From Nanobdellota archaeon (GTDB taxonomy: Archaea; Nanobdellota; Nanobdellia; Woesearchaeales; UBA10107): a DNA stretch of 64,000 bases. Numbering within the stretch: position 1 is the stretch's first letter; each line of letters begins with the position of its first letter. The notes under the pieces were generated by a model. That model did no database searches, was not told the origin of the DNA, and saw only the letters and a program-made list of their open reading frames with translations. Positions 6,001 through 43,929 of this stretch are shown here, in pieces. The DNA is taken from assembly GCA_042571125.1 (NCBI GenBank), contig JBHPFU010000002.1, positions 109,878-173,877 of the forward strand, in the 5' to 3' direction. Made by a program: the position numbers and the translations under genes.

Positions 6001-7880
6001 ACACAGTAGGATCATGGTGGGGAGCAGCTAAAGTCAAAGAACGTGAATTAGCTAAAATCTTAAAAGCAAAAGCAAGACGTACTGGACGCGTTATTGAGAA
6101 AGATGCAGAAAAAATAATTGAAAAAGAACACGAATTTGCTTCTGATATAAGGAACAAAGTTAAGGGAGAGATAAAAGTAATTATAGGCATCTACAATAAA
6201 GATAAGGCTAAAGCAGTTAAAGCAGCACATGATCTAAAAATTTCCACCAGAAGAAAAGCAAGACACGCAGGAAGAGAGGTTTCTGGATTTGTTGAATCTA
6301 TTAAAGATAAATTCATTACAGAGGAGCATGAACTTGCTACAAAAACAAGAAAAACAATCGGGCACATGGGCTTTGCTCTTGAAAGAGCAGAGGAAAAGAT
6401 CTATGAAAGAGTCGCAGAAAATGTATTGGGCGTAATGCACTCACTAGTTCTTGCTTCCAGGAGAGCAGGACACAAACTTGAAGTTGCAAAACTAAGAGAA
6501 GAAGAATTTGTAAAGAACACAAGACATGAGATAAGCGGTGAAATCAAGCATATCAAAAGCATCTTAAGAAAAGGCGTAACAGAAGCAGAAAATGAATGGG
6601 AGCTTACGAAAAAGAGGGAGCATGAATTTGTTCTAGCTTCAAGAAGATTCATCAAAGGACAGCTAAAGCATGCTGCGTCTGCAATAGAAAAAGGAAAAGA
6701 TTCTGCTAATCAAAGAAGAAAAAAGATCATAGGAGATCTTAAGAATCAATTTATGATAACAGGAGAAGCAATAAGAGATAGAGAACATGATGTTGTCAAA
6801 AGGATCAGAGCTGAAGTAAGGCACGATAAGCATGAATTGCAGAAGAGAAAAGATGCTATAGCAAATAGAGCTCATGAAGTTGCTAAAGGAATCAGATATT
6901 CAGAACATGAACTAGTTAATAATTTAAAAGCTAAAGGAAGAGGAATAAAGCATCAATTCCTAAAAACAGGAGAAGCAATAAGAGAAACAGAGCATGAAAT
7001 TGCTAAGAGAACAAGAGCTGAAATAAGACACGAGAAGCACGAGTTACATAAGAGTAAGGATGCGATATCTAGTAGGGCTCATGAAATCGTTCAAGGAATA
7101 AAAAATAGGAAGCATGAAATTGCTGAAGGAGTTAGAGCTGAAATAAGACATGAGCAACATAAGTTACAAGAAAGAAGGGACGCAGTAAAAGATAGAGCTC
7201 ATGAAGTTGCTGAAGGAATAAGAGATGAACGGCATGAAATTGCTAAGGGAATCAAAGCAGAGATAAGACATGAGAAGCATGAATTAGAGAAGAAAAAGAA
7301 TGCCGTAAAAGATAGAGTTAATGCGGTCATCAAAAGAATAAAAGATAGGAAGCATGAAATTGCTGAAGGAGTTGGAGCTGAAATAGGACATGAGCAACAT
7401 AAGTTACAAGAAAGAAGGGACGCAGTAAAAGATAGAGCTCATGAAATCGTTCAAGGAGTAAAAGATGAACGGCATGAAATTGCTAAAGGTATCAAAGAAG
7501 AGATAAGACATGAGAAGCATGAACTGCAGAAGAGAAAAGATGCTATAGCGGGCAGGGCTCATGAAATCGTTCAAGGAGTAAAATATGAACAACATGAACT
7601 TGCCAAGAGAACAAGAGCTGAAATAAGGCATGAGAAGCATGAATTAGAAAAGAGAAAGAATGCAATACAAGACAATATACAAAATGTCAAGAGCGTAGCT
7701 AAAAAAGACACAGAGCTTGTTAAAGCGTCAGGTGCTGCAGCTAAAGAAAGCGCAAAGTTATTCGGAAGTGTAATATCAACTATTGCTTCAGATATATCCG
7801 GAATATTCACTAAGAAAACAAGAACTAAAAATCAAAAAGAATATCTTTTGAAAAAGTTAAAAGGAGCGTATAAGATATGA
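1..7880 (+). CDS. Giant surface protein, 5'-partial at the window edge (more than 2630 aa). It has a sequon-rich extracellular region with repeated roughly 95-aa modules and FN3-like modules, a Cys-rich stalk, one transmembrane helix near nt 5695-5756, and a roughly 650-aa His/Glu/Lys/Arg-rich repetitive tail.
   Basis: The reading frame is open back to nt 3 and the upstream residues match the internal repeat motif FTVQDTTKP. There are very many NxS/T sequons. The module VSTIEPTNVNEDV..CNLFIDGTLNGSM..PGSYQFLANCTD occurs about 5 times. A hydrophobic segment IITWSLLFLVLATLITYGAI is present. The tail repeats RAHEIVQGVKDERHEIAKGIKEEIRHEKHEL about 16 times. Confidence 0.85.
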   Translation, partial: YTIYANDTLGNQVNQSSNFTVQDTTKPVISFVAPTTSAGAHNQNEILANATSDSVDLDTITINLFNSTSNLINSTSLAASNLLVNFSNLAEGSYYLNATANDTAGNLNYTETRNIILDNTYPSITFENPTPSSGTVQNISSLLINVSASDTNFANITTYLYNETTQISKATVSNTVQFSNFVGLPNGIYYFNATAYDDAGNVNYTETRNVTINRSINAPPYWSNLNEMPGDPADYVPDKTYYFNITWNDDEGVDSVWIEFDGVNYTSEVYNISNTYVFNRTGLSVGVHNYTWYANDTNKNLTSANETYTLNALPSYSSNGSVVDEQGTVQNASYKIYNSTGHLVYSSDMYYTFTFEGTQKYDLLVTAHYDDYIRQYELKGIFNNTNNTNPIQARFNNITNHHVVNPTTLNFDELTIELRPATTNGIFFKCSGTYNLTTSICSGTWEPWLNVKSIDYENYTFTPGDPALSEANGTFFEDWETGSFATNNWTNDGCWAIVNDAANAYSGDYYAACTVSGTYTLYVNVSTAGYENINISFWYQSDGYYVTSFAADYWNGTTWRNLFTDAPVDNIATWTNVFNTTESDADDNADLRLRFVRNGGNNRDIWLENIFVTGTEIDYISPSVSTIQPTSANEDVATNYNATVSDNVGVTACNLFIDGALNGSMDVSGTLANRSVTITTPGSYQFLANCTDAAGNYNDTSVTNVTINDVTAPTWNETPTNRLLELGAPLYYDVNASDNVAVDVYSINDNTNFTINPTNGIIQNNTGLSIGTYSLNISVNDTSNNVLSEVINVTVQDTTKPSVSTIEPTNVNEDVSTTYNATVYDLDGVTSCNLYIDGTLNGSMSITGGVLAERTVTVTTPGSYQFLANCTDATGNYNDTSTTTVTINDITAPTWDETPQNQIVGHETDFSYDVNASDNVAIDTYSVDNSNFSISGAGVITNTTLLSVGVHSLNISVNDTSNNKLSEVITVTVQDTTKPSVSTIEPTNVNEDVSTTYNATVYDLDGVTTCNLFIDGTLNGSMSITGGVLAERTLTVTTPGSYQFLANCTDATGNYNDTSTTTVTINDITAPTWDETPQNQIAEYGTDFSYDVNASDNVAIDTYSVDNSNFSISGAGVITNTTLLSVGVHSLNISVNDTSNNKLSEVITVTVNDTIAPVISSVTTGTITNETGQILWSTNENANSTVDYGLTTALGSSTGSGTLVTAHDLTILSLTNNTLYYYNVTSCDVYGYCSIAGPYNFTTISNIPDTSAPIIANVNHSGVTNDSAIINWTTDDTSNSTVYYGETIALGSSTSSGTLVTTHSITLTGLTNVTLYYYNVSSCNQYGNCSTDGYYNFTTEQSPDVLSPSVSTIQPTSADEDTSTTYNATLSDVEGVTSCNLFIDGTLNGSMTISGGVLAERTLTLTTPGSYQFLANCSDAAGNYNDTSTTTVTINDITTPSLVVSSPVDGNGYTVNNISIYYTVLDNVGVDSCWYTNTTGQIVNLVGCANTSINVTDGDWNITVYANDTSNNINSSQISFLVDTANPVVNFVYPTPGDGTGVSATTITVNVTAANGPASIDSCKLTFNNTDYLMTKIGTGSAVSCNFTLSGLSEGFYVYNVTANDTLNNIGYSANRNVTIDITTPEVSTIEPVNVDEDVTTNYNATVSDNLGITSCNLFIDGTLNGSMTVAGGLAERTLNVTTPGSYQFLANCTDIAGNYNDTSTTTVTINDITAPVMSSISESSITTSSAHITWTIDELANSTVEYGLTSGLGSIESSPTLTTSHDLTLTNLTNGTVYYYNVTSCDADGNCDTLGLYNFTTANPTPPSTGGGGSHERICNENWNCTEWNECSVNGLRTRACTELSGCGTYLYRPIMFEYCEPEEIPSGEIVPTVPEEEISEEVPVVEVPAPRPIKKIITWSLLFLVLATLITYGAIRRQAIYAGTEAVIEELKGLGRLYGAGRKKRKEEEVVKVVQRRDIFKEGIKSRAQKTKEFVIHTEQSAVKILRDYLRGIEHAAYTVGSWWGAAKVKERELAKILKAKARRTGRVIEKDAEKIIEKEHEFASDIRNKVKGEIKVIIGIYNKDKAKAVKAAHDLKISTRRKARHAGREVSGFVESIKDKFITEEHELATKTRKTIGHMGFALERAEEKIYERVAENVLGVMHSLVLASRRAGHKLEVAKLREEEFVKNTRHEISGEIKHIKSILRKGVTEAENEWELTKKREHEFVLASRRFIKGQLKHAASAIEKGKDSANQRRKKIIGDLKNQFMITGEAIRDREHDVVKRIRAEVRHDKHELQKRKDAIANRAHEVAKGIRYSEHELVNNLKAKGRGIKHQFLKTGEAIRETEHEIAKRTRAEIRHEKHELHKSKDAISSRAHEIVQGIKNRKHEIAEGVRAEIRHEQHKLQERRDAVKDRAHEVAEGIRDERHEIAKGIKAEIRHEKHELEKKKNAVKDRVNAVIKRIKDRKHEIAEGVGAEIGHEQHKLQERRDAVKDRAHEIVQGVKDERHEIAKGIKEEIRHEKHELQKRKDAIAGRAHEIVQGVKYEQHELAKRTRAEIRHEKHELEKRKNAIQDNIQNVKSVAKKDTELVKASGAAAKESAKLFGSVISTIASDISGIFTKKTRTKNQKEYLLKKLKGAYKI
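2386..3455. repeat. Two near-identical tandem DNA repeats of about 535 bp inside the giant gene, each encoding a roughly 180-aa repeat unit. More diverged copies start near 1861, 4040 and 4870.
   Basis: Direct comparison of 2386-2920 against 2918-3455 shows long identical runs, for example gttcaggatactacaaagccatcagt...ccgacttgggatga. Confidence 0.8.
6770..7680. repeat. Tandem repeats of about 111 bp (37 aa) encoding the His/Glu-rich tail of the giant protein.
   Basis: An almost identical roughly 95-nt block (aagcatgaaattgctgaaggagtt..gctgaaata..acatgagcaacataagttacaagaaagaagggacgcagtaaaagatagagctcatgaa) occurs at about 7115-7210 and again at about 7355-7450. Related copies occur throughout. 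Confidence 0.75.
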
Positions 7881-7941: not shown

Positions 7942-8739
7942 ATGGGCAAGACAATAGGCATTATTGCGATAAAAGGTGGTGTTGGAAAAACAACAACGGT
8001 TTCTAATCTGGGAGCGGTTCTAGCGAGTGAATTTAATAAAAAAGTTCTATTAGTTGATGCTAATTTCAGTGCACCGAACCTGGGGCTACACTTAGGCATA
8101 GTTGATCCTGCAAAAACACTTCACGATGTAATTGAAAACAAGGCAACAATACACGAAGCAGTACAGGAACACGATCATGGCTTCCACATCATCCCCTCCT
8201 CATTAGTTCATAAGAAAATTAATCCATTTAAACTAAAAAATAGACTGGCGTCAATCAAAAAAAACTATGATGTTATACTTGTTGACTCCTCTCCAACATT
8301 AAACGAGGAGATTTTAGCGACTATGCTTGCTTCTGATGAGCTTTATGTTGTAACAAGTGCAGACTATCCAACACTTAGCTGTACAATGAGTGCGGTTAAG
8401 CTGGCAAAAGAAAGAAAAACACCAATAAGCGGGCTTATTATCAATAAGACTAGAGGGGAAAAGTTCGAACTAAGCTTAACTGAAATAGAAGAATCAACAG
8501 GGATCCCGGTTTTAGCAGTTATTCCTGATGACATAAAGGTTTTGGAAGCACTATCTGAAACAAAATCTGCTGCTCTTCATGCTCCAAAAAAGGATTTTGC
8601 TATTGAATATAAAAAATTGGCAGGATTTTTAGTGGGGGAAGAGTATAAAGACAAAAGATTAAAGACAAAAGTAAAAGATTTCTTTTTAACAAACCACGAT
8701 GTTCCTAAGCAAAACATAAACAGGATATTAAAAGAATGA
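7942..8739 (+). CDS. MinD/ParA-family P-loop ATPase.
   Basis: Deviant Walker A motif IKGGVGKTTT and a ParA-like sequence layout. The protein is 265 aa. Confidence 0.85.
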   Translation: MGKTIGIIAIKGGVGKTTTVSNLGAVLASEFNKKVLLVDANFSAPNLGLHLGIVDPAKTLHDVIENKATIHEAVQEHDHGFHIIPSSLVHKKINPFKLKNRLASIKKNYDVILVDSSPTLNEEILATMLASDELYVVTSADYPTLSCTMSAVKLAKERKTPISGLIINKTRGEKFELSLTEIEESTGIPVLAVIPDDIKVLEALSETKSAALHAPKKDFAIEYKKLAGFLVGEEYKDKRLKTKVKDFFLTNHDVPKQNINRILKE

Positions 8740-9059
8740 GGGCTCAAGCATCTATTAAGATTGTTAGCGGAATTGTAGTAGTTTTGTTGGTATTTCTTAT
8801 AGTGTTTACACTAAAAGAAGGCCCCAATCTAACAGGCTACGTTAGTTCGGATGTTTCTGAAGAAGTAAAAGCATGTTACCTTTCAACAGAATCTGGGCTG
8901 ATTCCGATGTCTGATCTGGCTGATTGCTGCACCTCATTAAAGAACGCAGTAGGCTGTCAGAAGTACGTTTCTGATGAACTGGCTGATGACCTATATAAGT
9001 GCAAATCAAAGCGTATAATCGTCGCAAATAAGGCTCTAATCGACTTCTGCATGGGATAA
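8736..9059 (+). CDS. Small membrane-anchored Cys-rich protein, translationally coupled to the MinD-like gene.
   Basis: An ATGA start/stop overlap. The N-terminus has the hydrophobic helix IVSGIVVVLLVFLIVF, followed by a domain with 6 Cys. Confidence 0.5.
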   Translation: MRAQASIKIVSGIVVVLLVFLIVFTLKEGPNLTGYVSSDVSEEVKACYLSTESGLIPMSDLADCCTSLKNAVGCQKYVSDELADDLYKCKSKRIIVANKALIDFCMG

Positions 9060-13317: not shown

Positions 13318-15072
13318 TCAGCGATGACGTTGCATTCTATATAGGTTTTCTACAACATCAATAGTAGAAATCTCATCTGGCCTTCTATCTTCCCTTACTT
13401 CAACTAAGCGAGGAAATCTTAAAGCAAATCCAGATTGATATGTGGGCGATTTTTGTATCTCTTCATAATTTATCTCTATTACCAATTTTGGTTTAACTGT
13501 AACATGTTTTCCTTTTTCAGCAATTATCAAAGGTTTCAAGATATTCGTAAGCTCTTTAAAAGTCGCACCAAGACCTTCTAATTCTTTTATTCCTGTTCCA
13601 ACTTTGCCGATTCCAACATACTCTCCTGTATCGGGATCTAAACATGCAATATCAAAGCTGCTCAACCAGTTAGCTCTCTTACCTTCACCCCATTCAGCAC
13701 CTATTATAACCAAATCAAGAGTTTCCATAACGGGTTTTATCTTAACACCATACCCAACTCTTGAGCCTGGCTTGTAGATTCCCTCTAGATTTTTAGCCAT
13801 GACTCCTTCATTTCCTTTTTTCAGAGCTTCAGCATAGAATGCTTGGGCTTTTTTAGGATCATCTGTGATTATCTGTTTTGCTGCCTGTAGTTTATCTGGA
13901 ACTTCTTTTATTATCTTTTCAATTATCTTTCTTCTTTCCTTAAACGGCTTATTGATAACATCTTGATCTTCAAATTCGATAACATCAAAAACATTGACCA
14001 TAACCGGCAATTTCTTAATTATTTCTTCAATATCATATTTTCTTTTAATTCTCTGAGAAATATCCTGGAATGGCTTCCATTTTTTTGTTTTTGGGTCAAT
14101 ACCAATTATTTCTGTGTCTAAAATAAAATTATCTCCTTTAATATTCTCAACAACTTCAACAACATCTGGAAATTGTTTTGTTACATTGTCTAATCTTCTT
14201 GTAAATAACTTTGTTTTTCCGTCTTTTCTATGAATCTGCATCCTAAATCCATCGTATTTATATTCAAATGCTGCGGGTTTGCCAACAGTCTCAAAAGCAT
14301 CTTCCATATCTTTCGCTTTTGGGTAAAGCATTACCTTTATTGGCTTTCCAACCTCCATTTTTACTTTTTTCAGTGCTTCAATACCTTCTTTAGCAATTAA
14401 AATCACTTCTGAAAAATCATTTTTAGCATTATATGCAGATTGAAGAGCATCTATGTACTGATTATAATGTTCCCTATTCTCTACTTCAAAATTATTTTCT
14501 TTTTGATCATAGGTAAAGCCAAGATCTTTACCAAAGAATGCCCAGACAATCGCATCTCTTAATGTTCCGTCTGCAACACCCACTCTTAGTTCTTCTAAAA
14601 CTGTTCTTGTTATGAACTTTGCTTCTCCCGGTTTTGCAGATGTTAAAAGCTCTGAGATTAATTGTACTTTTTTGTCAACAGTTCCAGAGCCAACAAATTC
14701 AGGAAGTTTTCTTATGTTTTCAAATACTTTTGAAGATGTTAAAGATGTTGAAAATAAAGTTCTTTGTTTCTTTTTGCTTACTAGGTTCTCAGCAGTGATC
14801 CCCAAGTCTCCTGTTTTTTTCCATTCGGCCTCAATCTCTTGTTCAGTCATGCCTGTTGATTTTCCAATCACTTTTATCATCAAACGGGCAGCGACACCTA
14901 TTTTGCGCTCATCATATGAAGGGAAAACTCTTCCCTGTAGCAATAATACCACTTCAGGAAGATCTTTTTCAGAAGTTTTTTTAAGAAATTCAGAGATAAT
15001 ATGTGTTTTTTCCAGCCTTTTGGATGTTGATTCTAGCTCACTGTAGACTTCAACTAAATCAGCGTATTTCAT
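13318..15072 (-). CDS. lig: ATP-dependent DNA ligase.
   Basis: Adenylation motif I KYDGFRMQIH. 584 aa with a typical archaeal Lig layout. Confidence 0.9.
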   Translation of the reverse strand: MKYADLVEVYSELESTSKRLEKTHIISEFLKKTSEKDLPEVVLLLQGRVFPSYDERKIGVAARLMIKVIGKSTGMTEQEIEAEWKKTGDLGITAENLVSKKKQRTLFSTSLTSSKVFENIRKLPEFVGSGTVDKKVQLISELLTSAKPGEAKFITRTVLEELRVGVADGTLRDAIVWAFFGKDLGFTYDQKENNFEVENREHYNQYIDALQSAYNAKNDFSEVILIAKEGIEALKKVKMEVGKPIKVMLYPKAKDMEDAFETVGKPAAFEYKYDGFRMQIHRKDGKTKLFTRRLDNVTKQFPDVVEVVENIKGDNFILDTEIIGIDPKTKKWKPFQDISQRIKRKYDIEEIIKKLPVMVNVFDVIEFEDQDVINKPFKERRKIIEKIIKEVPDKLQAAKQIITDDPKKAQAFYAEALKKGNEGVMAKNLEGIYKPGSRVGYGVKIKPVMETLDLVIIGAEWGEGKRANWLSSFDIACLDPDTGEYVGIGKVGTGIKELEGLGATFKELTNILKPLIIAEKGKHVTVKPKLVIEINYEEIQKSPTYQSGFALRFPRLVEVREDRRPDEISTIDVVENLYRMQRHR

Positions 15073-23667: not shown

Positions 23668-23740
23668 AGCCCCGTGGTGTAGTGGCCAATCATCTAGGAT
23701 TTTGGGTCCTGGGACCGCGGTTCAAATCCGCGCGGGGCTA
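23668..23740 (+). tRNA. tRNA-Gln (UUG).
   Basis: Acceptor AGCCCCG/CGGGGCT, anticodon stem TAGGA/TCCTG with loop TTTTGGG, T-arm CGCGG-TTCAAAT-CCGCG. TATA TTTTATAAAT lies about 28 bp upstream. Confidence 0.8.
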
Positions 23741-23777
23741 CTATTTTAAATATCAGTTCTTTCTTAGAAGCCTACGC

Positions 23778-23894
23778 AGCCCCGTGGTGTAGTGGCCAAT
23801 CATAACCGGTTCTGGACCTGTTGACCGCGGTTCAAATATTTGCGCCTGGAGCGACAATGCTCTGAACGTCAGTGAGAAAGTCCGCGCGGGGCTA
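23778..23894 (+). tRNA. tRNA-Gln (CUG) with a roughly 44-nt intron at a non-canonical position in the T-arm (about 23838-23881).
   Basis: The 5' 60 nt are nearly identical to the upstream tRNA-Gln except for anticodon loop TTCTGGA. The T-loop TTCAAAT is followed by an insert, then the 3' T-stem and acceptor strand CCGCGCGGGGCTA. Confidence 0.7.
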
Positions 23895-23937
23895 TTTTTC
23901 AGTTAAATTTATAATTTCTGTATATTTAACAGGCAAT

Positions 23938-24555
23938 ATGAAAGAGGTGTTTAAGAAAGAGAATTATCCTAAGCTTTTGCTTTACATATTCTTAATCTAC
24001 TGGATAATAATGGGGATCTCTCCCCATTATCGTGGAGCGTGGATTAGTGAGAATCTTTTAACAGTATTCTTTGTCGGACTTTTAATCTTAACATATAAAA
24101 AGTTTAGATTCTCTAACTTAAGTTACACTTTATTTTTCATATTTTTGGTATTGCATGTTATAGGAAGTTATTATTCTTATACAGAAATGCCTTTGTTTAA
24201 TTTAATCAAAGACTGGATGAATCTTAGCAGGAATCATTATGATCGCGTAATACATTTCTTATTCGGGGTTATGTTTTTCGTTCCTGTCTATGAATTTTTA
24301 TCTAAGAAATTCAAGATAAAGGATTTCTGGGGATACTTGCTAACATTTTTAGTGATTACCGCTGCAAAAGGCAGTTATGAGATTATAGAGTATTTAACTA
24401 TCTTTGTTGTTAACCAGGAATTGCTTGTTACAAATTTTCTAGGAATGCAAGGCGACAAATGGGACTCGCAAAAAGATTTAATTTTGGGTATGCTCGGCTC
24501 AGGGTTTGTTTGGCTAACAATATGGATAAAAACTCGTTTTAAGAAGCGTAATTAA
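23938..24555 (+). CDS. Integral membrane protein (YjdF/DUF2238-like).
   Basis: Multiple transmembrane helices. The track ORF start at 23872 overlaps the tRNA, so ATG 23938 is preferred, with a TATA about 25 bp upstream. Confidence 0.55.
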   Translation: MKEVFKKENYPKLLLYIFLIYWIIMGISPHYRGAWISENLLTVFFVGLLILTYKKFRFSNLSYTLFFIFLVLHVIGSYYSYTEMPLFNLIKDWMNLSRNHYDRVIHFLFGVMFFVPVYEFLSKKFKIKDFWGYLLTFLVITAAKGSYEIIEYLTIFVVNQELLVTNFLGMQGDKWDSQKDLILGMLGSGFVWLTIWIKTRFKKRN

Positions 24556-24919
24556 GAGCTAATCTGCTTGGTTTTGTTGGTTCTCGCATAGGTATTACAA
24601 TAATATCAGATTTTGGATGATTAACTCCGTAGTTCATTCTGATAAATGAATAGAACTTACTAAGTTCTTTAAGACTAAATCCGGAATAGTGTTTTTGATA
24701 TCTCCCAAACGCAGCAGAGTATCTTGGATGTTTTTGATTTGATTCCATAACAATAGCTAGGTCAGAAAGAAGCCCTTCTAATCTTGGTTTCAGCCTGTGT
24801 TTAAGGCTATTTTTAAGGGTATCTGTGATTGTTTTGAACTCATCATTATCCTTTAAGCTATAGAAAAATTGATGGCTTTCATAAAGCTCAAACAAACTAT
24901 CTGGTGTTTTTTCTGCCAT
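24539..24919 (-). CDS. Hypothetical protein (126 aa), divergent from the primase operon.
   Basis: ORF only. Confidence 0.4.
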   Translation of the reverse strand: MAEKTPDSLFELYESHQFFYSLKDNDEFKTITDTLKNSLKHRLKPRLEGLLSDLAIVMESNQKHPRYSAAFGRYQKHYSGFSLKELSKFYSFIRMNYGVNHPKSDIIVIPMREPTKPSRLALNYAS

Positions 24920-24987
24920 TTATACTGCCCCAACTATAGTTTGGGTCATAACAATCTATATAAAGTTTTATCTACTCCAGAATAGGT

Positions 24988-26805
24988 ATGGGGTGGCAGG
25001 ATTCTTTATCTACAGAGACGATTGCAAATATTAGAAGTCTGAATATCTCGTGGATTATTGACAATTTTGTTCCGGGCCATAAGATGGTTCAAACAGAAGG
25101 AGCATATACTGGCCCATGTCCGATTCATAAAGGAAAAAAGACAGAGTTTGCAGCAAGAAATAATTACTTTACTTGTTTTAAATGTGGAGAAAAAGGGGAT
25201 GGCATTGATTTTGTGCAGGCACTAAAAAGCATAGACGGACTTAATGCTGCAAAACTGATAAGCAAAGCTGCAGATATTCCTTTTGAAACAGCAACAAGTG
25301 AACATGACGCATTAACAAGAGAATTAATGTATCAGATACATGAAGATTCTGCAGAGTACTATCGCAAAAATCTTTCTGTAAGTTCAAAAGATAAAAAAGA
25401 TGCATTGGACTATCTTCTTTCAAGAGTTAGTGAACAATCAATAAGAGAATGGGGTCTTGGATTTGCACCAAGAATGGGCTTATCTAGTTTTCTTATAGAA
25501 AAAGGGCACGATGCTGATTTAGTATCTCGATTAGGGCTTAGAGTAAAATCAGAAGATAGAGGAAACTGGTATGATTTCTTCAGAAACAGAATTATGTTTC
25601 CTATTAAAAATGAAAGAGGCAAAGTTGTTGGGTTTGCAGGGAGAGATATTGAAAAAGATCCAAGAATAAAATATATGAACAGCAGAGAGAGCGAAATCTA
25701 TAGAAAATCAGAGTGTCTTTTTGGAATTGACAAGGCAATAAGAGACATACGTATAAAAAAACAAGTAATCGTTATGGAAGGGTATATGGATGTTATAGCA
25801 GCGCATGAAAATGGAATTGAAAACTGCGTGGCTGTTGCCGGAACTGCTCTAAATTATGGATTAATAAGAACATTATCAAGATATGCAAGAGACATAACTC
25901 TTTGTTTTGATCCAGATGCTGCAGGATGGACTGCAACAGAAAGGATTGGTAAGACTGCATTATCAGAAAAGGTAGCAATCAACATTGTGGATCTTGGGCA
26001 TGGTGACCCCGACGAATTTCTAAAAGAATATGGCAAGAAGAAATTCTTATCTGCAATAAAAAACGGTGTGAATCCTATTGAATTTATTTTAGAACGTAAA
26101 GGATTAAAGAAAATAAAAGGGATTGATAACCGATGTTTGGCAGTACGGGATCTTTATCCAGTAATCGATTCTACAACTGATCCTGCACAGAAATCTGCCT
26201 GGCTGGAATACATTGCTAAAGAGCTAAAGATAAATTCTAGGGCGCTTAACAAAAGCTATAACTTGCATGTAAGAGAACTCGCAGGTTATCAGAACGGAAG
26301 ACCTATCGAACAATATTTTCTTGGATTTCTTACATCTAACACAACACATAGAATGCGTGCGAAAGAAAAATTCATACGAGAGAATTTTTCAAGACCGGAA
26401 TATGGCCTGTATTTTGAATTTCTCTGCTTTGATGAAGAAGCAAAAGATGTTGTTTATAATCCTGACCTGCAGATGGACGAGAATTCTTTGTTTACCAAAG
26501 TTCAATTGAGCGACTTGCTTGATAAATTTAAAAGTTATTGTAAAGAAAGAAAGATAATTCTTCGTCAAACTCAGCTGGGAAATCTTGAAGGTATGCTTTT
26601 GAGTTCTACAAACGAAATTTCTGACTTTGTAAGGCAAATGGAGATGCAGGTTCTGGCAGATAAACTGGAATATAAAAAAGGTCTTATAAAAAAACTTGAG
26701 AGAGAAAGTGCAGATCACTCTCTTATTCCTAACCTTGTGGTTGAGTACAATAAATTACATAGTAAATACGAATCACTAAAACATTATATTAATCAGGGTG
26801 TTTAA
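24988..26805 (+). CDS. Bacterial-type DnaG-like primase with an N-terminal CHC2 zinc finger, a TOPRIM domain and an unknown C-terminal domain.
   Basis: Zinc-finger motif CPIHKGKKTEFAARNNYFTCFKCGEKGDGIDFV. TOPRIM Glu in VIVMEGYMDVIAAH and DxD in LCFDPDAAG. TATA TCTATATAAAG about 28 bp upstream, consistent with a leaderless transcript. Confidence 0.8.
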   Translation: MGWQDSLSTETIANIRSLNISWIIDNFVPGHKMVQTEGAYTGPCPIHKGKKTEFAARNNYFTCFKCGEKGDGIDFVQALKSIDGLNAAKLISKAADIPFETATSEHDALTRELMYQIHEDSAEYYRKNLSVSSKDKKDALDYLLSRVSEQSIREWGLGFAPRMGLSSFLIEKGHDADLVSRLGLRVKSEDRGNWYDFFRNRIMFPIKNERGKVVGFAGRDIEKDPRIKYMNSRESEIYRKSECLFGIDKAIRDIRIKKQVIVMEGYMDVIAAHENGIENCVAVAGTALNYGLIRTLSRYARDITLCFDPDAAGWTATERIGKTALSEKVAINIVDLGHGDPDEFLKEYGKKKFLSAIKNGVNPIEFILERKGLKKIKGIDNRCLAVRDLYPVIDSTTDPAQKSAWLEYIAKELKINSRALNKSYNLHVRELAGYQNGRPIEQYFLGFLTSNTTHRMRAKEKFIRENFSRPEYGLYFEFLCFDEEAKDVVYNPDLQMDENSLFTKVQLSDLLDKFKSYCKERKIILRQTQLGNLEGMLLSSTNEISDFVRQMEMQVLADKLEYKKGLIKKLERESADHSLIPNLVVEYNKLHSKYESLKHYINQGV

Positions 26806-28852
26806 GATTATCAGAAAGTTAACAAAAGAGGAAAAACGAGAAATAGCGGGTAAGACGAGAAGGGCGGGTTATTCTTCTAAAAAAAATATTGCGATTGGTG
26901 AGCTATACCGACATAACAGAGGATTATACAATTATTTAAAAAGAAGGGGGAGGTCTATTGGAACTAATAATATTTCTCATTTATTGACTGAGTCTGGATT
27001 TGATGCGGGGCAAACAAGAGACATAAGAGCAGAATTAATTAAAGAACTTAAGAACGAGTTCCCTTTGTCAAGAGTACGAGAAATTGTTAAAAGAGGACCT
27101 CAGACTCCGAAAAAGAGCGGATTGATTTCACTTAAAAAAGTAATCTGCAGGTATAAGTCTAAAAGAGTGAAATGTAAAGATTTGCCACCTACACGAAAAA
27201 TAATTGATTCTTTATATGCACAACATCCTCACTTATCGTTTTATTTGACAGGCCAAGTAAAAGCAGGAGATTTTACGCCCACTGAGATGGGTTCAACATT
27301 AAGAGATGTGTACTTCACAGGTGGAGATATTTCCTGCACAGGATTGCAACAACGTGAATTTGGTCTTTATTGGAGATGGTTAACTGCTCATGCAAAAATG
27401 CAAAGCGAAAATCTATTCGGTCAAGATAAAAGAAATCTAACAAAGATTGTTGAAGAGTTATCCAACATACGTGCTGCTGACTTTTCAATAAAACATGCAA
27501 AAGAAACAAAAACTCTTGGAAACATAAGCGAGAATCTTACAAGAACTATTCTTTGGTCTACACTTGTTTTAGATCAGTTCGGAAAAAGGCAAACTAACGC
27601 ATTCAAAAGATGCTACCCCTTGCCTTTTTCCGATATTTTTCCAGTATACGGAAGAGAACAAGGATTAAAGTGCGAACACGCACCAGCACAGGAAGGAGAT
27701 AAAGAACTTTATGCAGATGCGGTTATTAGATCACTTGATGAGTTATGTTATGTAGAAGTTAAGAATTTTACAACTGCTCACGGTAATGTTTTATCAGAAT
27801 TAAAGGGGAAAATATGTTCAGAAAGAGTTTTGTTTTGGAATAAAGGAGACAGGGATGTAACAAGAAAGACTTTAGTTGTACATTCAACAGATAAAGTCTA
27901 CAGAGACGTTGTTGATTCTTTAAAAGGAGAAGATCTTTCTTTTGTTTCGCCTTCTGAATTCAGAAAAAGTCTTGAAATAACATTACGAGATTTGGAAAGC
28001 AGCGGGTATACAACACCGCAGGTTTATTCTGCTGAACAAATTCTAAAAGCGTATGATATCATTGCTGAACGTCCGCATATTTTAATCCGACCGAGTCATG
28101 AACAGGAATTTAAATTTATCAATGACGTTACAAAAGATCTGCTTACAAAACTTCAAAGAGGATACCGAGCAAATGGTTACAAACCAATAACTGTCTTCTC
28201 AAGAAAAGGAAGATTAATAGAAAATAGTGAAGGGACATTCCAATTATTTAAACTGCCCCTACAAAATTTGCCTGATTCAAATGTCAAGGCACAGGTTATG
28301 AAAAGAATGGATGATCTTCATCCTGGAAAATTATTCATGGACATTGAAACCATGGGTTTTCATGGAAAACAGATCTTCCTTATCGGAACAATGTACAATT
28401 CAGGAAGAGATATAACTGCAGAGCTTGCTTTTGCAAGGAATCCATTAGAAGAACGGGCAGTGCTAAAACACTTCTGTGCTCAGGCACAGAATTATGATGA
28501 AGTAATAACCTATAACGGGAAAAGCTTTGATTATCCTGCAATTAAAAAAAGGCTTGTTTCAAACAGGATGAGCGATACCCTCCCAGATAAACACACTGAC
28601 TATTATCGCGTATTAATGAAAACCGGAATATATAAAAAGACAAACTCTGCAAGGCTTTCGGAACTATATAAGTTATTTGGGGAAGAAAGGGAAGATATCA
28701 GCAGCGCAGAAGTCCCTCAGAGATATCTGGACTGGATGAAGCACGGGTCAGCAGAGGCAATAAATGATGAGATTGAACATAACGTGCTCGATCTGCTCAC
28801 AATGGCAGCAGTTTACTTATCACCAAATCTTTTGAAAGGCAGGAAGATATAA
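26798..28852 (+). CDS. 684-aa protein with a novel N-terminal roughly 480 aa and a C-terminal RNase H-fold 3'-5' exonuclease domain of the YprB/COG3359 (RNase_H_2) type.
   Basis: GTG start overlapping the primase stop by 8 nt. C-terminal motifs MDIETMGF, ITYNGKSFDYPAIKKRL and EIEHNVLDL. No Walker A motif. Confidence 0.65.
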   Translation: MFKIIRKLTKEEKREIAGKTRRAGYSSKKNIAIGELYRHNRGLYNYLKRRGRSIGTNNISHLLTESGFDAGQTRDIRAELIKELKNEFPLSRVREIVKRGPQTPKKSGLISLKKVICRYKSKRVKCKDLPPTRKIIDSLYAQHPHLSFYLTGQVKAGDFTPTEMGSTLRDVYFTGGDISCTGLQQREFGLYWRWLTAHAKMQSENLFGQDKRNLTKIVEELSNIRAADFSIKHAKETKTLGNISENLTRTILWSTLVLDQFGKRQTNAFKRCYPLPFSDIFPVYGREQGLKCEHAPAQEGDKELYADAVIRSLDELCYVEVKNFTTAHGNVLSELKGKICSERVLFWNKGDRDVTRKTLVVHSTDKVYRDVVDSLKGEDLSFVSPSEFRKSLEITLRDLESSGYTTPQVYSAEQILKAYDIIAERPHILIRPSHEQEFKFINDVTKDLLTKLQRGYRANGYKPITVFSRKGRLIENSEGTFQLFKLPLQNLPDSNVKAQVMKRMDDLHPGKLFMDIETMGFHGKQIFLIGTMYNSGRDITAELAFARNPLEERAVLKHFCAQAQNYDEVITYNGKSFDYPAIKKRLVSNRMSDTLPDKHTDYYRVLMKTGIYKKTNSARLSELYKLFGEEREDISSAEVPQRYLDWMKHGSAEAINDEIEHNVLDLLTMAAVYLSPNLLKGRKI

Positions 28853-29898
28853 TGGGCAAAAGACTAAGAAATCGTAGAAAGAAGAAGCATCATGCAAAAG
28901 CTAATGATAAATATTGGGGGATTTCAGAACCTGCTTTTGGACAAACTCTAGAAAGTATCCCCGGCATGAAATACTTTGTAGATTTATTTGAGAAAACACC
29001 ATTTGAAAAGCTTCCTAGTGCAGAGCAAATGGCAAACATAATCGCTCCAGCAGGTCCTCTCTCATATTCTGACCTGGAAGAGATGGCTAGATTTTTTGGA
29101 TACAGAATAGAATATTCTGAAAAGGACCATAACAGAAAAGTAATTAATCCTGGATACGCGTGCATATTCTCTTCATCAGATGAAAAGTACAGAGTTATTT
29201 ACTTGAATCCGCGTACAGATCCAGATAGGCAAAGACAAATATTAGGTCATGAGCTTGGACATCCTTTACTTTATACGTATTGTATGGCAAAAGATTTGAA
29301 AGCTTTTAGCTATGGTAAAGATTGCTATGATGATGAAGGTGATAAAACTTGTTGGCCAGCAGAACATTATCTGGATAAGTTAAGTCATAATCTTATTTTC
29401 CCGGATTCTATTCTGTCCGGATTAGATCTTACAGAAATTGATGCTAAAGGAGCGATGGAGATTGCTAAGGAATTTGGAGTTCCGATAGAAACTGTTGTTA
29501 CTCGTTTACACAGATTTACTAATAAAAACGGATTGGTAATCCTTGATTATTATGGGCATGTTGGTGGTTCTAGAGATAAGTATCATGTAAGTTATCAAGG
29601 ACTGCCTGTAAGCCACAGAGTTGATTTGAACCAACGTTCAACAAAACAGGGATTCAAAAGATGGAGAGAAGGATTGAATGGGGAAAGAACAAAGGTTGAA
29701 GCAGAAGAAATACTAGACATAACAAAAAGCAATGGACCATTTAGAATAAGAACTCCTTGTAATTATCTTTCATTTCATTCTACGCACAGACAGTATAAAT
29801 CCAAAACATGGTATAGGGGGGATATTAAAAATCCAAGAAGAATTCTTGTAAGCTTTCCTGTTAACGGAGGTAAAGCCGTTCCATTATCACTGGATTAA
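28852..29898 (+). CDS. ImmA/IrrE-family (COG2856, M78-like) zinc metallopeptidase with a roughly 120-aa unknown C-terminal extension.
   Basis: TAATG overlap with the upstream gene. HEXXH context RQRQILGHELGHPLLYTY, plus the downstream helical segment MEIAKEFGVPIETVVTRLHRF typical of ImmA. Confidence 0.7.
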   Translation: MGKRLRNRRKKKHHAKANDKYWGISEPAFGQTLESIPGMKYFVDLFEKTPFEKLPSAEQMANIIAPAGPLSYSDLEEMARFFGYRIEYSEKDHNRKVINPGYACIFSSSDEKYRVIYLNPRTDPDRQRQILGHELGHPLLYTYCMAKDLKAFSYGKDCYDDEGDKTCWPAEHYLDKLSHNLIFPDSILSGLDLTEIDAKGAMEIAKEFGVPIETVVTRLHRFTNKNGLVILDYYGHVGGSRDKYHVSYQGLPVSHRVDLNQRSTKQGFKRWREGLNGERTKVEAEEILDITKSNGPFRIRTPCNYLSFHSTHRQYKSKTWYRGDIKNPRRILVSFPVNGGKAVPLSLD

Positions 29899-32853: not shown

Positions 32854-34227
32854 ATGACCAATTATGAGAAGTTTAGACAGCACATAGTGGGTGCTGTTAA
32901 AGAGTTTAATAAAATACCAAAGAATGAGAAGATTAGAGTTATTTCTCACTTAGATTCTGACGGAATAAATGCATGTGCAATAGCAATAAATGCATTAAGT
33001 TTAGAAAACAGACCTTACTCAATCTCAATTATCGAACAATTGGATGAAAAAATAATAGAGAAGTTATCAAAAGAAGATTACAATGTTTACTTGTTTTCGG
33101 ATATTGGTTCAGGACAACTTTCTATGATAAATAAGCACTTGGGCAACAAAAAAATAATCATCCTAGATCATCACACGCCAGACGGTTCAGAAATAAAGGA
33201 AAACACAATATATGTAAATCCTCACTTGCATGACATTGATGGCGGAATGGAAATAGCAGGTTCTGGTGTTGTATACTTATTCGCAAAAGAATTAAACCAA
33301 AAAAACAAGAAGCTGGCACATCTTGCAGTAATAGGTGCAATAGGTGATGTCCAAGATAAAAACGGTTTTGAAAAACTAAACTCTGAAATTCTAAACGAAG
33401 CTGTTGAACAGGGGTTAATAGAAGTCAAGAAAGGAATAAATCTTTACGGATCCCAGACAAGACCGATTCATAAAGCATTAGAATACTCTGAATTACTAGA
33501 TATGAATGAAAGCGAGGCAATCCAGTTTCTGAACAGCATTGGAATAAACTCAAGAACTGAAAAAGATTGGAAAAAAATGCCTGACCTAACAGGAGAAGAA
33601 ATAAAAACACTGGCAGCAGGAATAATAATGAAAAGAAAAGGTCAGGAAGACTCAGAAGATATATTTACAGACCAATATTTGATAACCGGAGAGGAGGACG
33701 GGACTCAGTTCAGAGATGCAAAAGAATTTTCAACATTATTAAACAGCTGTGGAAGATTAAACAAGGCCTCGATTGGAATTGGTGCGTGCCTTGGAGATAA
33801 AAAAGCAAGGAAAAAAGCATTAAGCAGTTCAAAAGATTACAAAAGACAGTTAGCAGGAGCATTGAATTGGTTTAGAGAAAATCCAGATATAATAAAAGGA
33901 GATAATTATATAATAATAAATGCAAAAGATAACATATTGCATACTATCGCAGGAACATTGGCTTCTATCATCTCAAAATCAGGAGACTATCCGGACAACA
34001 TGTTCATAATGTGTTTAGCAAGAAACAGAAATCAAGATAATTTTTCAAAAGTATCAATAAGAATGACAGGAAAACCAGAAATAGACATAAGCGAGGTTGC
34101 AAGAGAGATAGTAGCGATATCTGGAGGAGAGGCAGGAGGACATAAGTCTGCTGCAGGAGCAATAATCGAAGCAGAGAATGATGAAAAGTTCATAGAGGCT
34201 GCCAAAGAGGTTTTCAGCAAATACTAA
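32854..34227 (+). CDS. RecJ-like DHH/DHHA1 phosphoesterase (archaeal GAN/RecJ homologue).
   Basis: DHH motif ILDHHTPDGS. DHHA1 GGEAGGHKSAAGA. Confidence 0.8.
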   Translation: MTNYEKFRQHIVGAVKEFNKIPKNEKIRVISHLDSDGINACAIAINALSLENRPYSISIIEQLDEKIIEKLSKEDYNVYLFSDIGSGQLSMINKHLGNKKIIILDHHTPDGSEIKENTIYVNPHLHDIDGGMEIAGSGVVYLFAKELNQKNKKLAHLAVIGAIGDVQDKNGFEKLNSEILNEAVEQGLIEVKKGINLYGSQTRPIHKALEYSELLDMNESEAIQFLNSIGINSRTEKDWKKMPDLTGEEIKTLAAGIIMKRKGQEDSEDIFTDQYLITGEEDGTQFRDAKEFSTLLNSCGRLNKASIGIGACLGDKKARKKALSSSKDYKRQLAGALNWFRENPDIIKGDNYIIINAKDNILHTIAGTLASIISKSGDYPDNMFIMCLARNRNQDNFSKVSIRMTGKPEIDISEVAREIVAISGGEAGGHKSAAGAIIEAENDEKFIEAAKEVFSKY

Positions 34228-42507: not shown

Positions 42508-43929
42508 TTAACCTTTAATTACTCCCAAAGGCTTTAATCTAACAACTAGATTTCCAATTCCTGCTTTGTGAGAAACATTAACAACTTCATCTATATCTTT
42601 GTAAGCAAGAGGAGCTTCTTCTGCAACACCTTTCCATGATGTTTGTTTAAGATGTATTCCTTTCGATAATAAATCCTGCTTAACCTTCTCTCCTCTAAAC
42701 TGATCTATTGCTGCATGTCTTGACATTGTTCGTCCAGCACCGTGCGCTGTTGAACCAAATGTTTCCTGCATACCTTTCTCAGTTCCAACCAGAACATAAG
42801 AAGCAGTACCCATCGAACCAGGAATGATTATCGGCTGTCCTACTTCACGATAAGCTTCAGGAACTTCCTTACGACCAGGACCAAAAGCACGAGTAGCACC
42901 TTTTCTATGCATGTAAACTTTTATTTTCTTGCCTTCAAACTCATGTTCTTCTATCTTAGCGATATTGTGAGCAACATCATATACTGTTTTAATTTCATCC
43001 TTGCCAAACACTTCTTTGTACGCTAATCTGACTTGATGAGCAATAACGTGTCTGTTGCACCATGCAAAATTAGCTGCTGCAGCCATTGCACCATAATACC
43101 TCTTACAAATATTAGATCCGGCAGGAGCATAAATTAATTCACGATCTGGCAATCCAGCAACAAGATCTGGATACTCCTTTTCCATCTCTCTTAGATAATC
43201 CGAGCAAACCTGATGTCCTAATCCACGAGAACCGCAATGTATCATGATAACAATCTGTCCTTTCTTCTCTATTCCGAATACTTTTGCAGTTTCTTCATCA
43301 TAAATTTCATCAACATACTGCATTTCCAGGAAATGATTCCCAGAACCAAGTGTTGCAATTTGTTTTTTCCCTCTTTTCTTTGCTTGATCGGAGACAGCAG
43401 ATGAATCTGCACCAGGCATTGAGCCATATTCTTCACAATGATCCAAGTCTTCTTTTGTTCCATACCCATTTTCAACGGCCCACTTAGCGCCAGTATTCAG
43501 AATCTTGTCTAATTCTACAAGATCAACAGTAATATTACTAGACCCAAGGCCTGCTGGAACATTTTTGTACAGGGCATCAAGAAACAAGTCTATTTTTTCT
43601 TCTGCCTCATCTTTAATTAAGTTTGTGCTTAACAAACGAACTCCGCAGTTAATATCATAACCGATCCCGCCTGGTGAAATCCCACCAGTTTCAAAATCTA
43701 ATGCTGCAACACCGCCAATCGGAAAACCATACCCTTGGTGACCGTCAGGCATTACCATTGCTTTATAGATACCAGGAAGATGCGCAAAGTTCTGAGCTTG
43801 CAGCAAAGTCTTATCTTTTTTCATTATCTCCAGCAATTTCTCAGAAGCATAGACTATTGTAGGTACTTTCATCCCCCCGGTCTTAGGAATTTCCCATTTG
43901 AAATCATTTATTTTTTTTAATTCTGTCAT
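42508..43929 (-). CDS. rtcB: RtcB RNA-splicing ligase.
   Basis: 473 aa with conserved His/Cys metal ligands, including GSMGTASYVL..HGAGR. Confidence 0.9.
   Translation of the reverse strand: MTELKKINDFKWEIPKTGGMKVPTIVYASEKLLEIMKKDKTLLQAQNFAHLPGIYKAMVMPDGHQGYGFPIGGVAALDFETGGISPGGIGYDINCGVRLLSTNLIKDEAEEKIDLFLDALYKNVPAGLGSSNITVDLVELDKILNTGAKWAVENGYGTKEDLDHCEEYGSMPGADSSAVSDQAKKRGKKQIATLGSGNHFLEMQYVDEIYDEETAKVFGIEKKGQIVIMIHCGSRGLGHQVCSDYLREMEKEYPDLVAGLPDRELIYAPAGSNICKRYYGAMAAAANFAWCNRHVIAHQVRLAYKEVFGKDEIKTVYDVAHNIAKIEEHEFEGKKIKVYMHRKGATRAFGPGRKEVPEAYREVGQPIIIPGSMGTASYVLVGTEKGMQETFGSTAHGAGRTMSRHAAIDQFRGEKVKQDLLSKGIHLKQTSWKGVAEEAPLAYKDIDEVVNVSHKAGIGNLVVRLKPLGVIKG

Follow-up and report, generated by a model that had tools for sequence, protein, structure and literature searches.

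The stretch of Nanobdellota archaeon DNA analysed here (64,000 nucleotides of contig JBHPFU010000002.1, hereafter the window) encodes a bacterial-type DnaG primase whose gene overlaps that of a 684-residue partner, the middle protein, which is predicted to be a dual nuclease. Together with a small, divergently transcribed gene, the two form a unit that recurs in other archaeal genomes. The anatomy of this unit, the intact active sites of its enzymes, the strict adjacency of the primase and nuclease genes and their co-divergence are direct results of the analysis. We lean towards interpreting the unit as a three-gene chromosomal module of Woesearchaeota-like DPANN archaea, acquired from bacteria, that would serve in replication restart or gap-repair priming.

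Gene layout

The region comprises the following elements:

24988-26805, forward strand: gene for the bacterial-type DnaG primase, an open reading frame (ORF) of 605 residues
26798-28852, forward strand: gene for the middle protein (predicted dual nuclease), an ORF of 684 residues with a GTG start
28852-29898, forward strand: gene for an M78 peptidase, an ORF of 348 residues
24539-24919, reverse strand: gene for a small conserved protein of 126 residues, divergent from DnaG; third conserved member of the module
24920-24987, no strand: divergent intergenic region of 68 nucleotides between the small-protein and DnaG genes, read from the sequence

A preliminary description of this DNA had listed the three forward-strand ORFs, the GTG start of the second and the 8-nucleotide and TAATG overlaps between them, and the ORF coordinates and junction sequences agree with it on each count. 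The junction of the DnaG and middle genes reads CAG GGT GTT TAA with the GTG lying within it, giving an overlap of 8 nucleotides (GTGTTTAA; read from the sequence). The junction of the middle and M78 genes, likewise read from the sequence, is ATA TAATG GGC with an overlap of 1 nucleotide, which suggests that the M78 gene may be co-expressed with the middle gene. An A/T-rich TATA-like element, ctatataaag, occupies positions 24956-24965, ∼25 nucleotides upstream of the DnaG ATG. The intergenic region that contains it is presumed to be the shared promoter region of the small-protein and DnaG genes.

A bacterial-type primase in an archaeon

Archaeal replication is usually described as purely archaeo-eukaryotic, with PriS/PriL as the primase; the DnaG homologues of archaea are placed with the exosome. 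The DnaG of the window matched the Pfam families Zn_ribbon_DnaG (PF01807, E 6.6e-12), DNAG_N (E 1.7e-33) and Toprim_2 (E 7.3e-18), and also Toprim_4. The NCBIfam hidden Markov model (HMM) TIGR01391, the dnaG equivalog, scored 307 bits against a cutoff of 283.6 and covered residues 9-412. In contrast, the model for the archaeal exosome-type DnaG (NF003108) gave just 22 bits against a cutoff of 300, so that the protein is not a member of this family. With its zinc ribbon and this low score, it does not qualify as an exosome-associated archaeal DnaG. Its nearest sequence relatives in the PDB are bacterial primase cores.

The zinc-binding residues C44, H47 and C63 and the Toprim residues E264, D308 and D310 were invariant across 7 orthologues, and the window protein has a further zinc-ribbon residue, C66. 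We predict that it is a complete, catalytically intact bacterial-type primase consisting of a CHC2 zinc ribbon, an RNA-polymerase core and a Toprim domain. The preliminary description had named it a bacterial-type DnaG on the strength of its N-terminal zinc finger and TOPRIM E..DxD motif, and the Pfam and TIGR01391 matches and the invariant residues bear this out. No Pfam family matched residues 412-605; this C-terminal region of ∼190 residues is conserved among the DPANN orthologues only. Pfam recognized no DnaB-binding domain in the protein, and none of the examined loci contained a DnaB gene. The order of zinc ribbon, RNA-polymerase core and Toprim is shared with the DnaG of bacteria such as E. 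coli, S. aureus and Aquifex. In contrast to these, the window DnaG is archaeal, lies outside the rpsU-dnaG-rpoD context and is coupled instead to a nuclease gene.

The partner protein carries two predicted nuclease domains

The middle protein was divided as follows:

26798-27496, forward strand: residues 1-233, all-helical N-terminal region (helices and short strands in the AlphaFold2 model)
27497-28000, forward strand: residues ∼234-401, predicted PD-(D/E)xK nuclease domain with E245, D307, E320 and K322
28310-28852, forward strand: residues 505-684, predicted DEDDh 3'-5' exonuclease domain of the RNase_H_2/YprB-MrfB type (PF13482, Foldseek)

The sole Pfam match of this protein was RNase_H_2 (PF13482) at residues 512-673, with an E value of 4.6e-26 and 92.2 bits against a threshold of 22. 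An AlphaFold2 model calculated with the family alignment as input reached a mean predicted local distance difference test score (pLDDT) of 88.7 and a predicted template modelling score (pTM) of 0.81. When its C-terminal domain was compared with the PDB using Foldseek, the top match was the catalytic core of MrfB (8un9_A, E 1.4e-5), followed by the exonuclease domains of PolB enzymes. An RNase H-fold exonuclease of the YprB type had been proposed for the last ∼200 residues, and both the Pfam and the structural match uphold that assignment.

The first ∼480 residues had been called unrecognizable. As far as sequence families go this stands: residues 1-505 matched no Pfam, NCBIfam, PADLOC or PHROG family, and a profile of the N-terminal module returned only noise when searched against PDB sequences and Pfam. 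The model, however, is not featureless in this part. It places a match to the PD-(D/E)xK (restriction-endonuclease) fold there, including the predicted alpha-beta-beta-beta-alpha-beta core, and E245, D307 and the E320-V-K322 motif, which make up the PD-(D/E)xK signature, are invariant in the family alignment. A helical linker connects this domain to the DEDDh domain, whose residues D515, E517, D578, H661 and D665 are kept in nearly all members. Both nuclease active sites are retained in essentially the whole family. The middle protein is thus predicted, from its sequence and model, to be a dual nuclease that combines a PD-(D/E)xK endonuclease with a DEDDh 3'-5' exonuclease.

For residues 1-233, Foldseek offered nothing beyond a long but weak alignment to the nickase Nt.BspD6I. 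Some relatives contain extra N-terminal copies of a helical-type module, the family alignment showing extensions in P0013, P0018, P0022 and P0023. P0022, P0027 and P0028 are without the exonuclease domain. The helical modules may be DNA-binding.

The family was collected by an exhaustive HMMER search of residues 1-505 against 1.84 billion cluster representatives at 50% identity. This identified 29 proteins or clusters, mostly of 670-730 residues and with 1-2 members per cluster, a count that may be too low, since the search started from one sequence and the protein evolves fast. All members with a source name came from metagenome-assembled genomes (MAGs) labelled Woesearchaeota, Nanoarchaeota or 'archaeon'. 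No relatives of the N-terminal module were detected in IMG/VR, GenBank phages or PLSDB plasmids, and an initial metagenome scan found nothing. A word-indexed protein search, which is unsuited to fast-evolving families, returned the query alone for both the middle protein and a 21-sequence profile. Looking up the window proteins by exact sequence gave no records.

MrfB (YprB), a repair exonuclease of Bacillus subtilis, depends on Mg, degrades DNA in the 3'-5' direction and acts in the MrfAB mitomycin-repair pathway (PMC11194089). It is the best structural match of the C-terminal domain. It belongs to the PF13482 family and has the DEDDh residues in common with the C-terminus of the middle protein. 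The architectures differ: in MrfB the exonuclease domain is N-terminal and followed by tetratricopeptide repeats (TPR), whereas in the middle protein, which gave no TPR match, it is C-terminal and fused to a PD-(D/E)xK domain. The partners differ as well, MrfB being associated with the helicase MrfA and the middle protein with a primase; none of the examined loci contained an MrfA-like helicase or had any helicase gene next to the pair. Type IIS enzymes and nickases (FokI, N.BspD6I/R.BspD6I) resemble the middle protein at the level of the fold only. In contrast to them it displays no sequence similarity, has no methyltransferase nearby and carries an additional exonuclease domain.

The primase and nuclease genes are coupled across divergent loci

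We judged 13 other loci (L027, L081, L082, L083/84, L085, L086, L087, L088, L089, L090, the P0016 contigs, L091 and L093). L027, from a Woesearchaeota MAG, was obtained by scanning contigs with patterns inside RNase_H_2; it was the only true family member among matches that were otherwise almost all bacterial YprB-like genes. L081-L090 and two P0016 contigs were retrieved by exact-protein look-up, and L091 and L093 are from Joint Genome Institute (JGI) metagenomes; a third JGI match, L092, was too short to judge and was left out of the 13. Adjacency was counted in one direction, loci being picked by their homologue of the middle protein and then checked for DnaG.

A bacterial-type DnaG adjoined the middle-protein homologue in 13/13 of these loci, down to 22-25% identity, and in each case it was a protein of 590-645 residues with Zn_ribbon_DnaG, DNAG_N and Toprim domains. 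It lay directly upstream on the same strand in 12 loci. The two genes overlap by 8 nucleotides in L027, L082, L085 and the P0016 contigs, as they do in the window, by 4 nucleotides in L083/84 and L093, and by 1 nucleotide in L087; in the remaining loci a gap of a few to ∼40 nucleotides separates them. L088 (8001-11203) harbours the most distant member (E 3e-4). Here the N-terminal module, an 806-residue protein with an additional N-terminus of ∼390 residues, and a 256-residue RNase_H_2 protein are encoded by separate adjacent genes, and a convergent DnaG gene adjoins them. The persistence of DnaG next to a nuclease that has undergone gene fission supports a functional link among all three domains.

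The divergence of DnaG was correlated with that of its partner (Spearman 0.71, Pearson 0.87; normalized BLAST scores of 15 non-independent pairs), as expected for co-inheritance. We conclude from these sequence comparisons that the pair, strictly coupled in the loci examined, is probably inherited vertically in Woesearchaeota-like DPANN archaea. No published account of a DPANN archaeon that pairs a bacterial-type DnaG with a nuclease was found. The earlier statement that primase, exonuclease and ImmA-type protease do not form a described system therefore holds, apparently, for the link between primase and exonuclease; the protease falls outside the conserved unit, as detailed below.

The genes flanking the pair vary from genome to genome and are core archaeal genes, among them those for eIF2-gamma, the ribosomal proteins S7, S6e, S8e and L16, RNase HII, SMC, the proteasome, LSM, CDP-archaeol synthase and PolB. 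The PolB next to the pair in L087 (10928-13297, reverse strand) is of the E. coli Pol II-like kind, scoring 413 bits compared with 146 bits for archaeal PolB. PolB group B7 of Woesearchaeota and Pacearchaeota was acquired from bacterial Pol II (Kazlauskas et al., PMC7544198). The L087 enzyme matches this group, which would fit a modest set of enzymes taken over from bacteria.

A third conserved gene

The preliminary description had left the divergent 126-residue gene (24539-24919) out of the module, yet this gene is conserved at its position in 9 loci. The protein had no match in Pfam, NCBIfam, PADLOC or PHROG, and its profile returned only noise against PDB sequences. BLASTP against ORFs in the corresponding place detected counterparts in L081 (3e-23), L089 (1e-18), L082 (4e-18), L090 (2e-16), L086 (7e-13) and L087 (3e-4). 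A counterpart in L027 is tied to the others by weak pairs only (L089, E 0.006; L086, E 0.033), none of them direct to the window protein. In all seven loci position and orientation are kept, and the counterparts are proteins of 94-143 residues or the N-terminus of a 357-residue protein. An HMM built from the small proteins matched an ORF of L091 that was absent from the model (E 9.5e-25), and in the window it matched 24539-24919 only. By these comparisons the conserved unit consists of the small protein, DnaG and the dual nuclease. The small protein appears helical and could perhaps be an adaptor. In L093 a DDE transposase (insertion sequence, IS) fragment at 5-343 lies immediately upstream of DnaG, the usual place of this gene.

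The M78 peptidase is a probable lineage-specific addition

The third forward-strand protein matched Peptidase_M78 (PF06114) at residues 110-220 with an E value of 3.8e-9 and 36.8 bits against a threshold of 22, and it contains the HELGH (HExxH) motif, which aligns to IrrE and CapP. Both support the ImmA/IrrE metallopeptidase signature noted previously. The protein also matched phrog_87 (metallo-protease, E 8.9e-13) and, weakly, PADLOC capP (27 bits); among phage proteins it showed weak similarity to Gordonia metalloproteases and nothing closer. Its N- and C-terminal extensions have no family assignment. ImmA, IrrE and CapP likewise have an M78 domain with an HExxH motif. In contrast to them, the window protein has no adjacent cognate helix-turn-helix (HTH) repressor or CapH, is extended at both ends and is not conserved with the module. 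The preliminary description had already remarked that no XRE-HTH substrate is encoded alongside, and Pfam indeed detected no HTH family in the neighbouring ORFs.

It is conceivable that DnaG, the exonuclease protein and the ImmA-like protease act as one protease-regulated three-component system. In the window the middle and M78 genes are joined by the TAATG overlap, the M78 domain and its HELGH motif are intact, and no separate HTH substrate is encoded nearby. The comparison of loci speaks strongly against such a system. An M78 gene was absent beside the pair in 12/12 other loci with a visible downstream gene; the genes found there encode eIF2-gamma, a radical SAM protein, dCMP deaminase, PolB, an SFM1-like methyltransferase, a membrane protein, Fic, threonine synthase and unassigned proteins. 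Nor was a close homologue of the M78 protein found elsewhere, only the query being returned from 5.8 billion proteins by the word-indexed search (weak for fast-evolving families) and nothing by a viral scan of IMG/VR. We consider a protease-regulated trio highly improbable. The preliminary description had made co-location in other genomes the touchstone for its trio. This is what we observe for DnaG and the middle gene, while for the ImmA/M78 gene the count is 0/12. On present sequence comparisons the M78 gene is a lineage-specific addition of this genome and stands outside the conserved machine. In the P0016 contigs (8096-9019) and in L091 (6699-7628) the pair is closely followed by a Fic/DOC-family gene, which, like the M78 gene in the window, can be viewed as an accessory-type gene on the 3' side of the module.

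These observations also bear on a possible role in antiviral defence. In such a system the dual nuclease would act as effector, the DnaG-like protein would either serve as sensor or synthesize nucleic acid and, in this genome, the M78 protein would be a regulator that responds to DNA damage. PADLOC models for DnaG-like proteins of defence-associated reverse transcriptase (DRT) systems do match the window DnaG (RT_UG29, 7.9e-32; RTasDnaG-like, 5.4e-21), capP weakly matches the M78 protein, and the fast sequence evolution, the sparse distribution and the accessory-type genes downstream (M78 in the window, Fic in the P0016 contigs and L091) would suit such a role. However, DnaG is complete and exceeds the dnaG equivalog cutoff, the PADLOC matches reflect a shared DnaG domain, and the middle protein matches no PADLOC model. 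The neighbours are housekeeping genes rather than defence islands, with no CD-NTase, CapH, reverse transcriptase or other defence partner among them. M78 is present in only 1/13 loci, and the co-divergence of the pair fits vertical inheritance. A CapP-CapH regulator of a cyclic-oligonucleotide-based antiphage signalling system (CBASS) was not found either, the window containing neither CapH nor a CD-NTase operon next to the M78 gene, whose neighbours encode a cyclophilin, a membrane protein and a TM0106-family nuclease. A defence function thus appears unlikely.

Genomic setting

Further features of the window are:

23668-23741, forward strand: tRNA-Gln(UUG) (ARAGORN, Rfam)
23778-23894, forward strand: tRNA-Gln(CUG), found by ARAGORN after removal of a 44-nucleotide insert (23838-23881) in the T-loop
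30707-32068, forward strand: bona fide TM0106-family nuclease with Cas4/RecB-like PD-(D/E)xK, helix-hairpin-helix and RNase_H_2 domains (TIGR03491, 328 bits), 1.9 kb downstream of the module
32854-34227, forward strand: RecJ/GAN-like DHH-DHHA1 protein, directly after ribosomal protein S15
13318-15072: ATP-dependent DNA ligase
63-7880, forward strand: large ORF of 2605 residues

The two tRNA genes had been taken for a duplicated tRNA-Gln with the operon immediately 3' of it. Neither point was confirmed. The genes encode different isoacceptors, UUG and CUG, which are 80% identical over the first 60 nucleotides, and the DnaG gene begins 1.1 kb away, with a DUF2238 membrane gene and the 126-residue gene in between. 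In its unspliced form tRNA-Gln(CUG) was missed by both ARAGORN and Rfam, and the insert in its T-loop is probably a non-canonical archaeal tRNA intron. An RtcB tRNA-splicing ligase is encoded within the window at 42508-43929. The GTG start listed for the DUF2238 gene (23872-24555) overlaps the 3' exon of tRNA-Gln(CUG), and its true start is probably the ATG at 23939.

This setting is relevant to the suggestion that the region is the replication module of a degraded plasmid or virus integrated near the tRNA-Gln genes. A bacterial-type primase in an archaeon does imply horizontal acquisition at some point; M78 proteins are typical of the switches of prophages and integrative and conjugative elements, the best phage matches here being phage metalloproteases; tRNA genes lie 1.1 kb upstream; and an IS fragment sits beside DnaG in L093. 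On the other hand, no integrase, capsid, terminase or partition gene was present in the window or the 13 related loci, in keeping with the lack of an integrase already remarked on in the preliminary description. The tRNA 3' end has no second copy in the window that could serve as an att-like direct repeat, and GC content is flat at 0.35-0.37 throughout. The N-terminal module has no viral or plasmid relatives in the databases searched, and the flanks are housekeeping genes that vary between genomes. An integrated element is accordingly very unlikely, and the tRNA-Gln pair was rejected as an integration scar given the distinct isoacceptors and the absence of a 3'-end repeat.

The surroundings of the module in the window are archaeal housekeeping genes, which encode, besides the DNA ligase and the RecJ/GAN-like protein, FtsZ, diphthine synthase Dph5, cyclophilin, Cdc48, GatD/E, RtcB and SerRS. 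The DNA ligase, the RecJ/GAN-like gene and the module form a loose group of DNA-metabolism genes. The TM0106 family (TIGR03491) shares a domain logic with the middle protein, a PD-(D/E)xK domain being followed by RNase_H_2. In contrast to it, the middle protein matches neither TIGR03491 nor a Cas4 model, is missing the region of the Cas4 Fe-S cysteine motif and has an additional helical N-terminus of ∼230 residues. A recent duplication as the origin of the middle protein and the neighbouring TM0106 nuclease was rejected, as BLASTP detected no similarity between the two.

Proposed function

Taken together, the intact enzymes, the conserved translational coupling, the co-divergence, the housekeeping setting and the lack of mobile-element or defence hallmarks make a chromosomal replication or repair module the most economical interpretation. 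In the mechanism we envisage, DnaG and the dual nuclease would form a complex. Stalled or damaged forks, nicks and blocked 3' ends are examples of the DNA structures that the nuclease would recognize; at such a site it would nick, cleave or trim and then resect in the 3'-5' direction, exposing single-stranded template. DnaG could then lay an RNA primer on the exposed strand, allowing synthesis to restart. The module would work alongside the archaeal PriS-PriL primase.

Three considerations weigh against this proposal. The order of cutting, resecting and priming is one that we infer entirely. The family detected here is sparse, whereas greater abundance might be expected of a core factor for replication in a large clade. 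Finally, the 3'-5' polarity makes the dual nuclease unfit for a simple role in primer removal; that function was tried as a candidate and rejected, since a 3'-5' exonuclease of the DEDDh type is unable to take away RNA primers at 5' ends.

A different division of labour is that DnaG is the main lagging-strand primase, replacing or sidelining PriS-PriL, with its partner acting as a replisome adaptor or a proofreader in trans that connects to MCM and PolB. The strict coupling and intact residues favour this reading, and the exonuclease domain resembles the proofreading domains of PolB. The DNA ligase, the TM0106-family nuclease and the RecJ/GAN-like protein are all encoded within ∼12 kb of the module, and a 2026 Nanobdellota preprint counts 'DNA primase DnaG', type unspecified, as a single-copy core gene. 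However, the partner family appears rare, and an intact PD-(D/E)xK endonuclease is unexpected in a mere adaptor. Furthermore, fused PriS-PriL has been reported in all cluster-2 DPANN archaea, including Woesearchaeota, Pacearchaeota and Nanoarchaeota (Dombrowski et al., PMC7414124), so that DnaG is probably an additional rather than the only primase. We regard a main-primase role as improbable. Among the readings offered in the preliminary description, an unusual host priming system comes nearest to the evidence, with the qualification that DnaG is probably not alone in priming.

A further proposal, which we put forward only tentatively, is a chimeric replisome or restart machine of a major DPANN lineage, in which the acquired DnaG is harnessed by the dual nuclease and a small adaptor, perhaps with the bacterial-derived Pol II-like PolB, and which would have no counterpart in bacteria or other archaea.

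The favoured restart or gap-repair module would have a functional analogue in bacteria. LigD, of bacterial non-homologous end joining (NHEJ), joins a primase-polymerase, a 3'-phosphoesterase/nuclease and a ligase. The likeness would be one of function only, namely priming together with a 3'-end-processing nuclease for repair. In contrast to the module, LigD uses a primase-polymerase of the archaeo-eukaryotic primase (AEP) type and another nuclease fold, and the two are not homologous.

Significance

Known parts in a new arrangement make up the module, which, as far as its sequences tell, occurs only in Woesearchaeota-like DPANN archaea. In this DPANN clade a complete bacterial primase that retains its zinc finger appears to be a fixed part of the chromosome, where it is strictly coupled to an undescribed nuclease with two predicted active sites and to a small protein. 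The placing of the ImmA-like protease outside the system removes a false lead. If the role in restart or repair is true, the module would be a natural case of a bacterial priming enzyme working within an archaeal DNA-metabolism network. It would also give the new PD-(D/E)xK and DEDDh nuclease family its first functional context, and offer a testable handle on DNA maintenance in genome-reduced symbionts.

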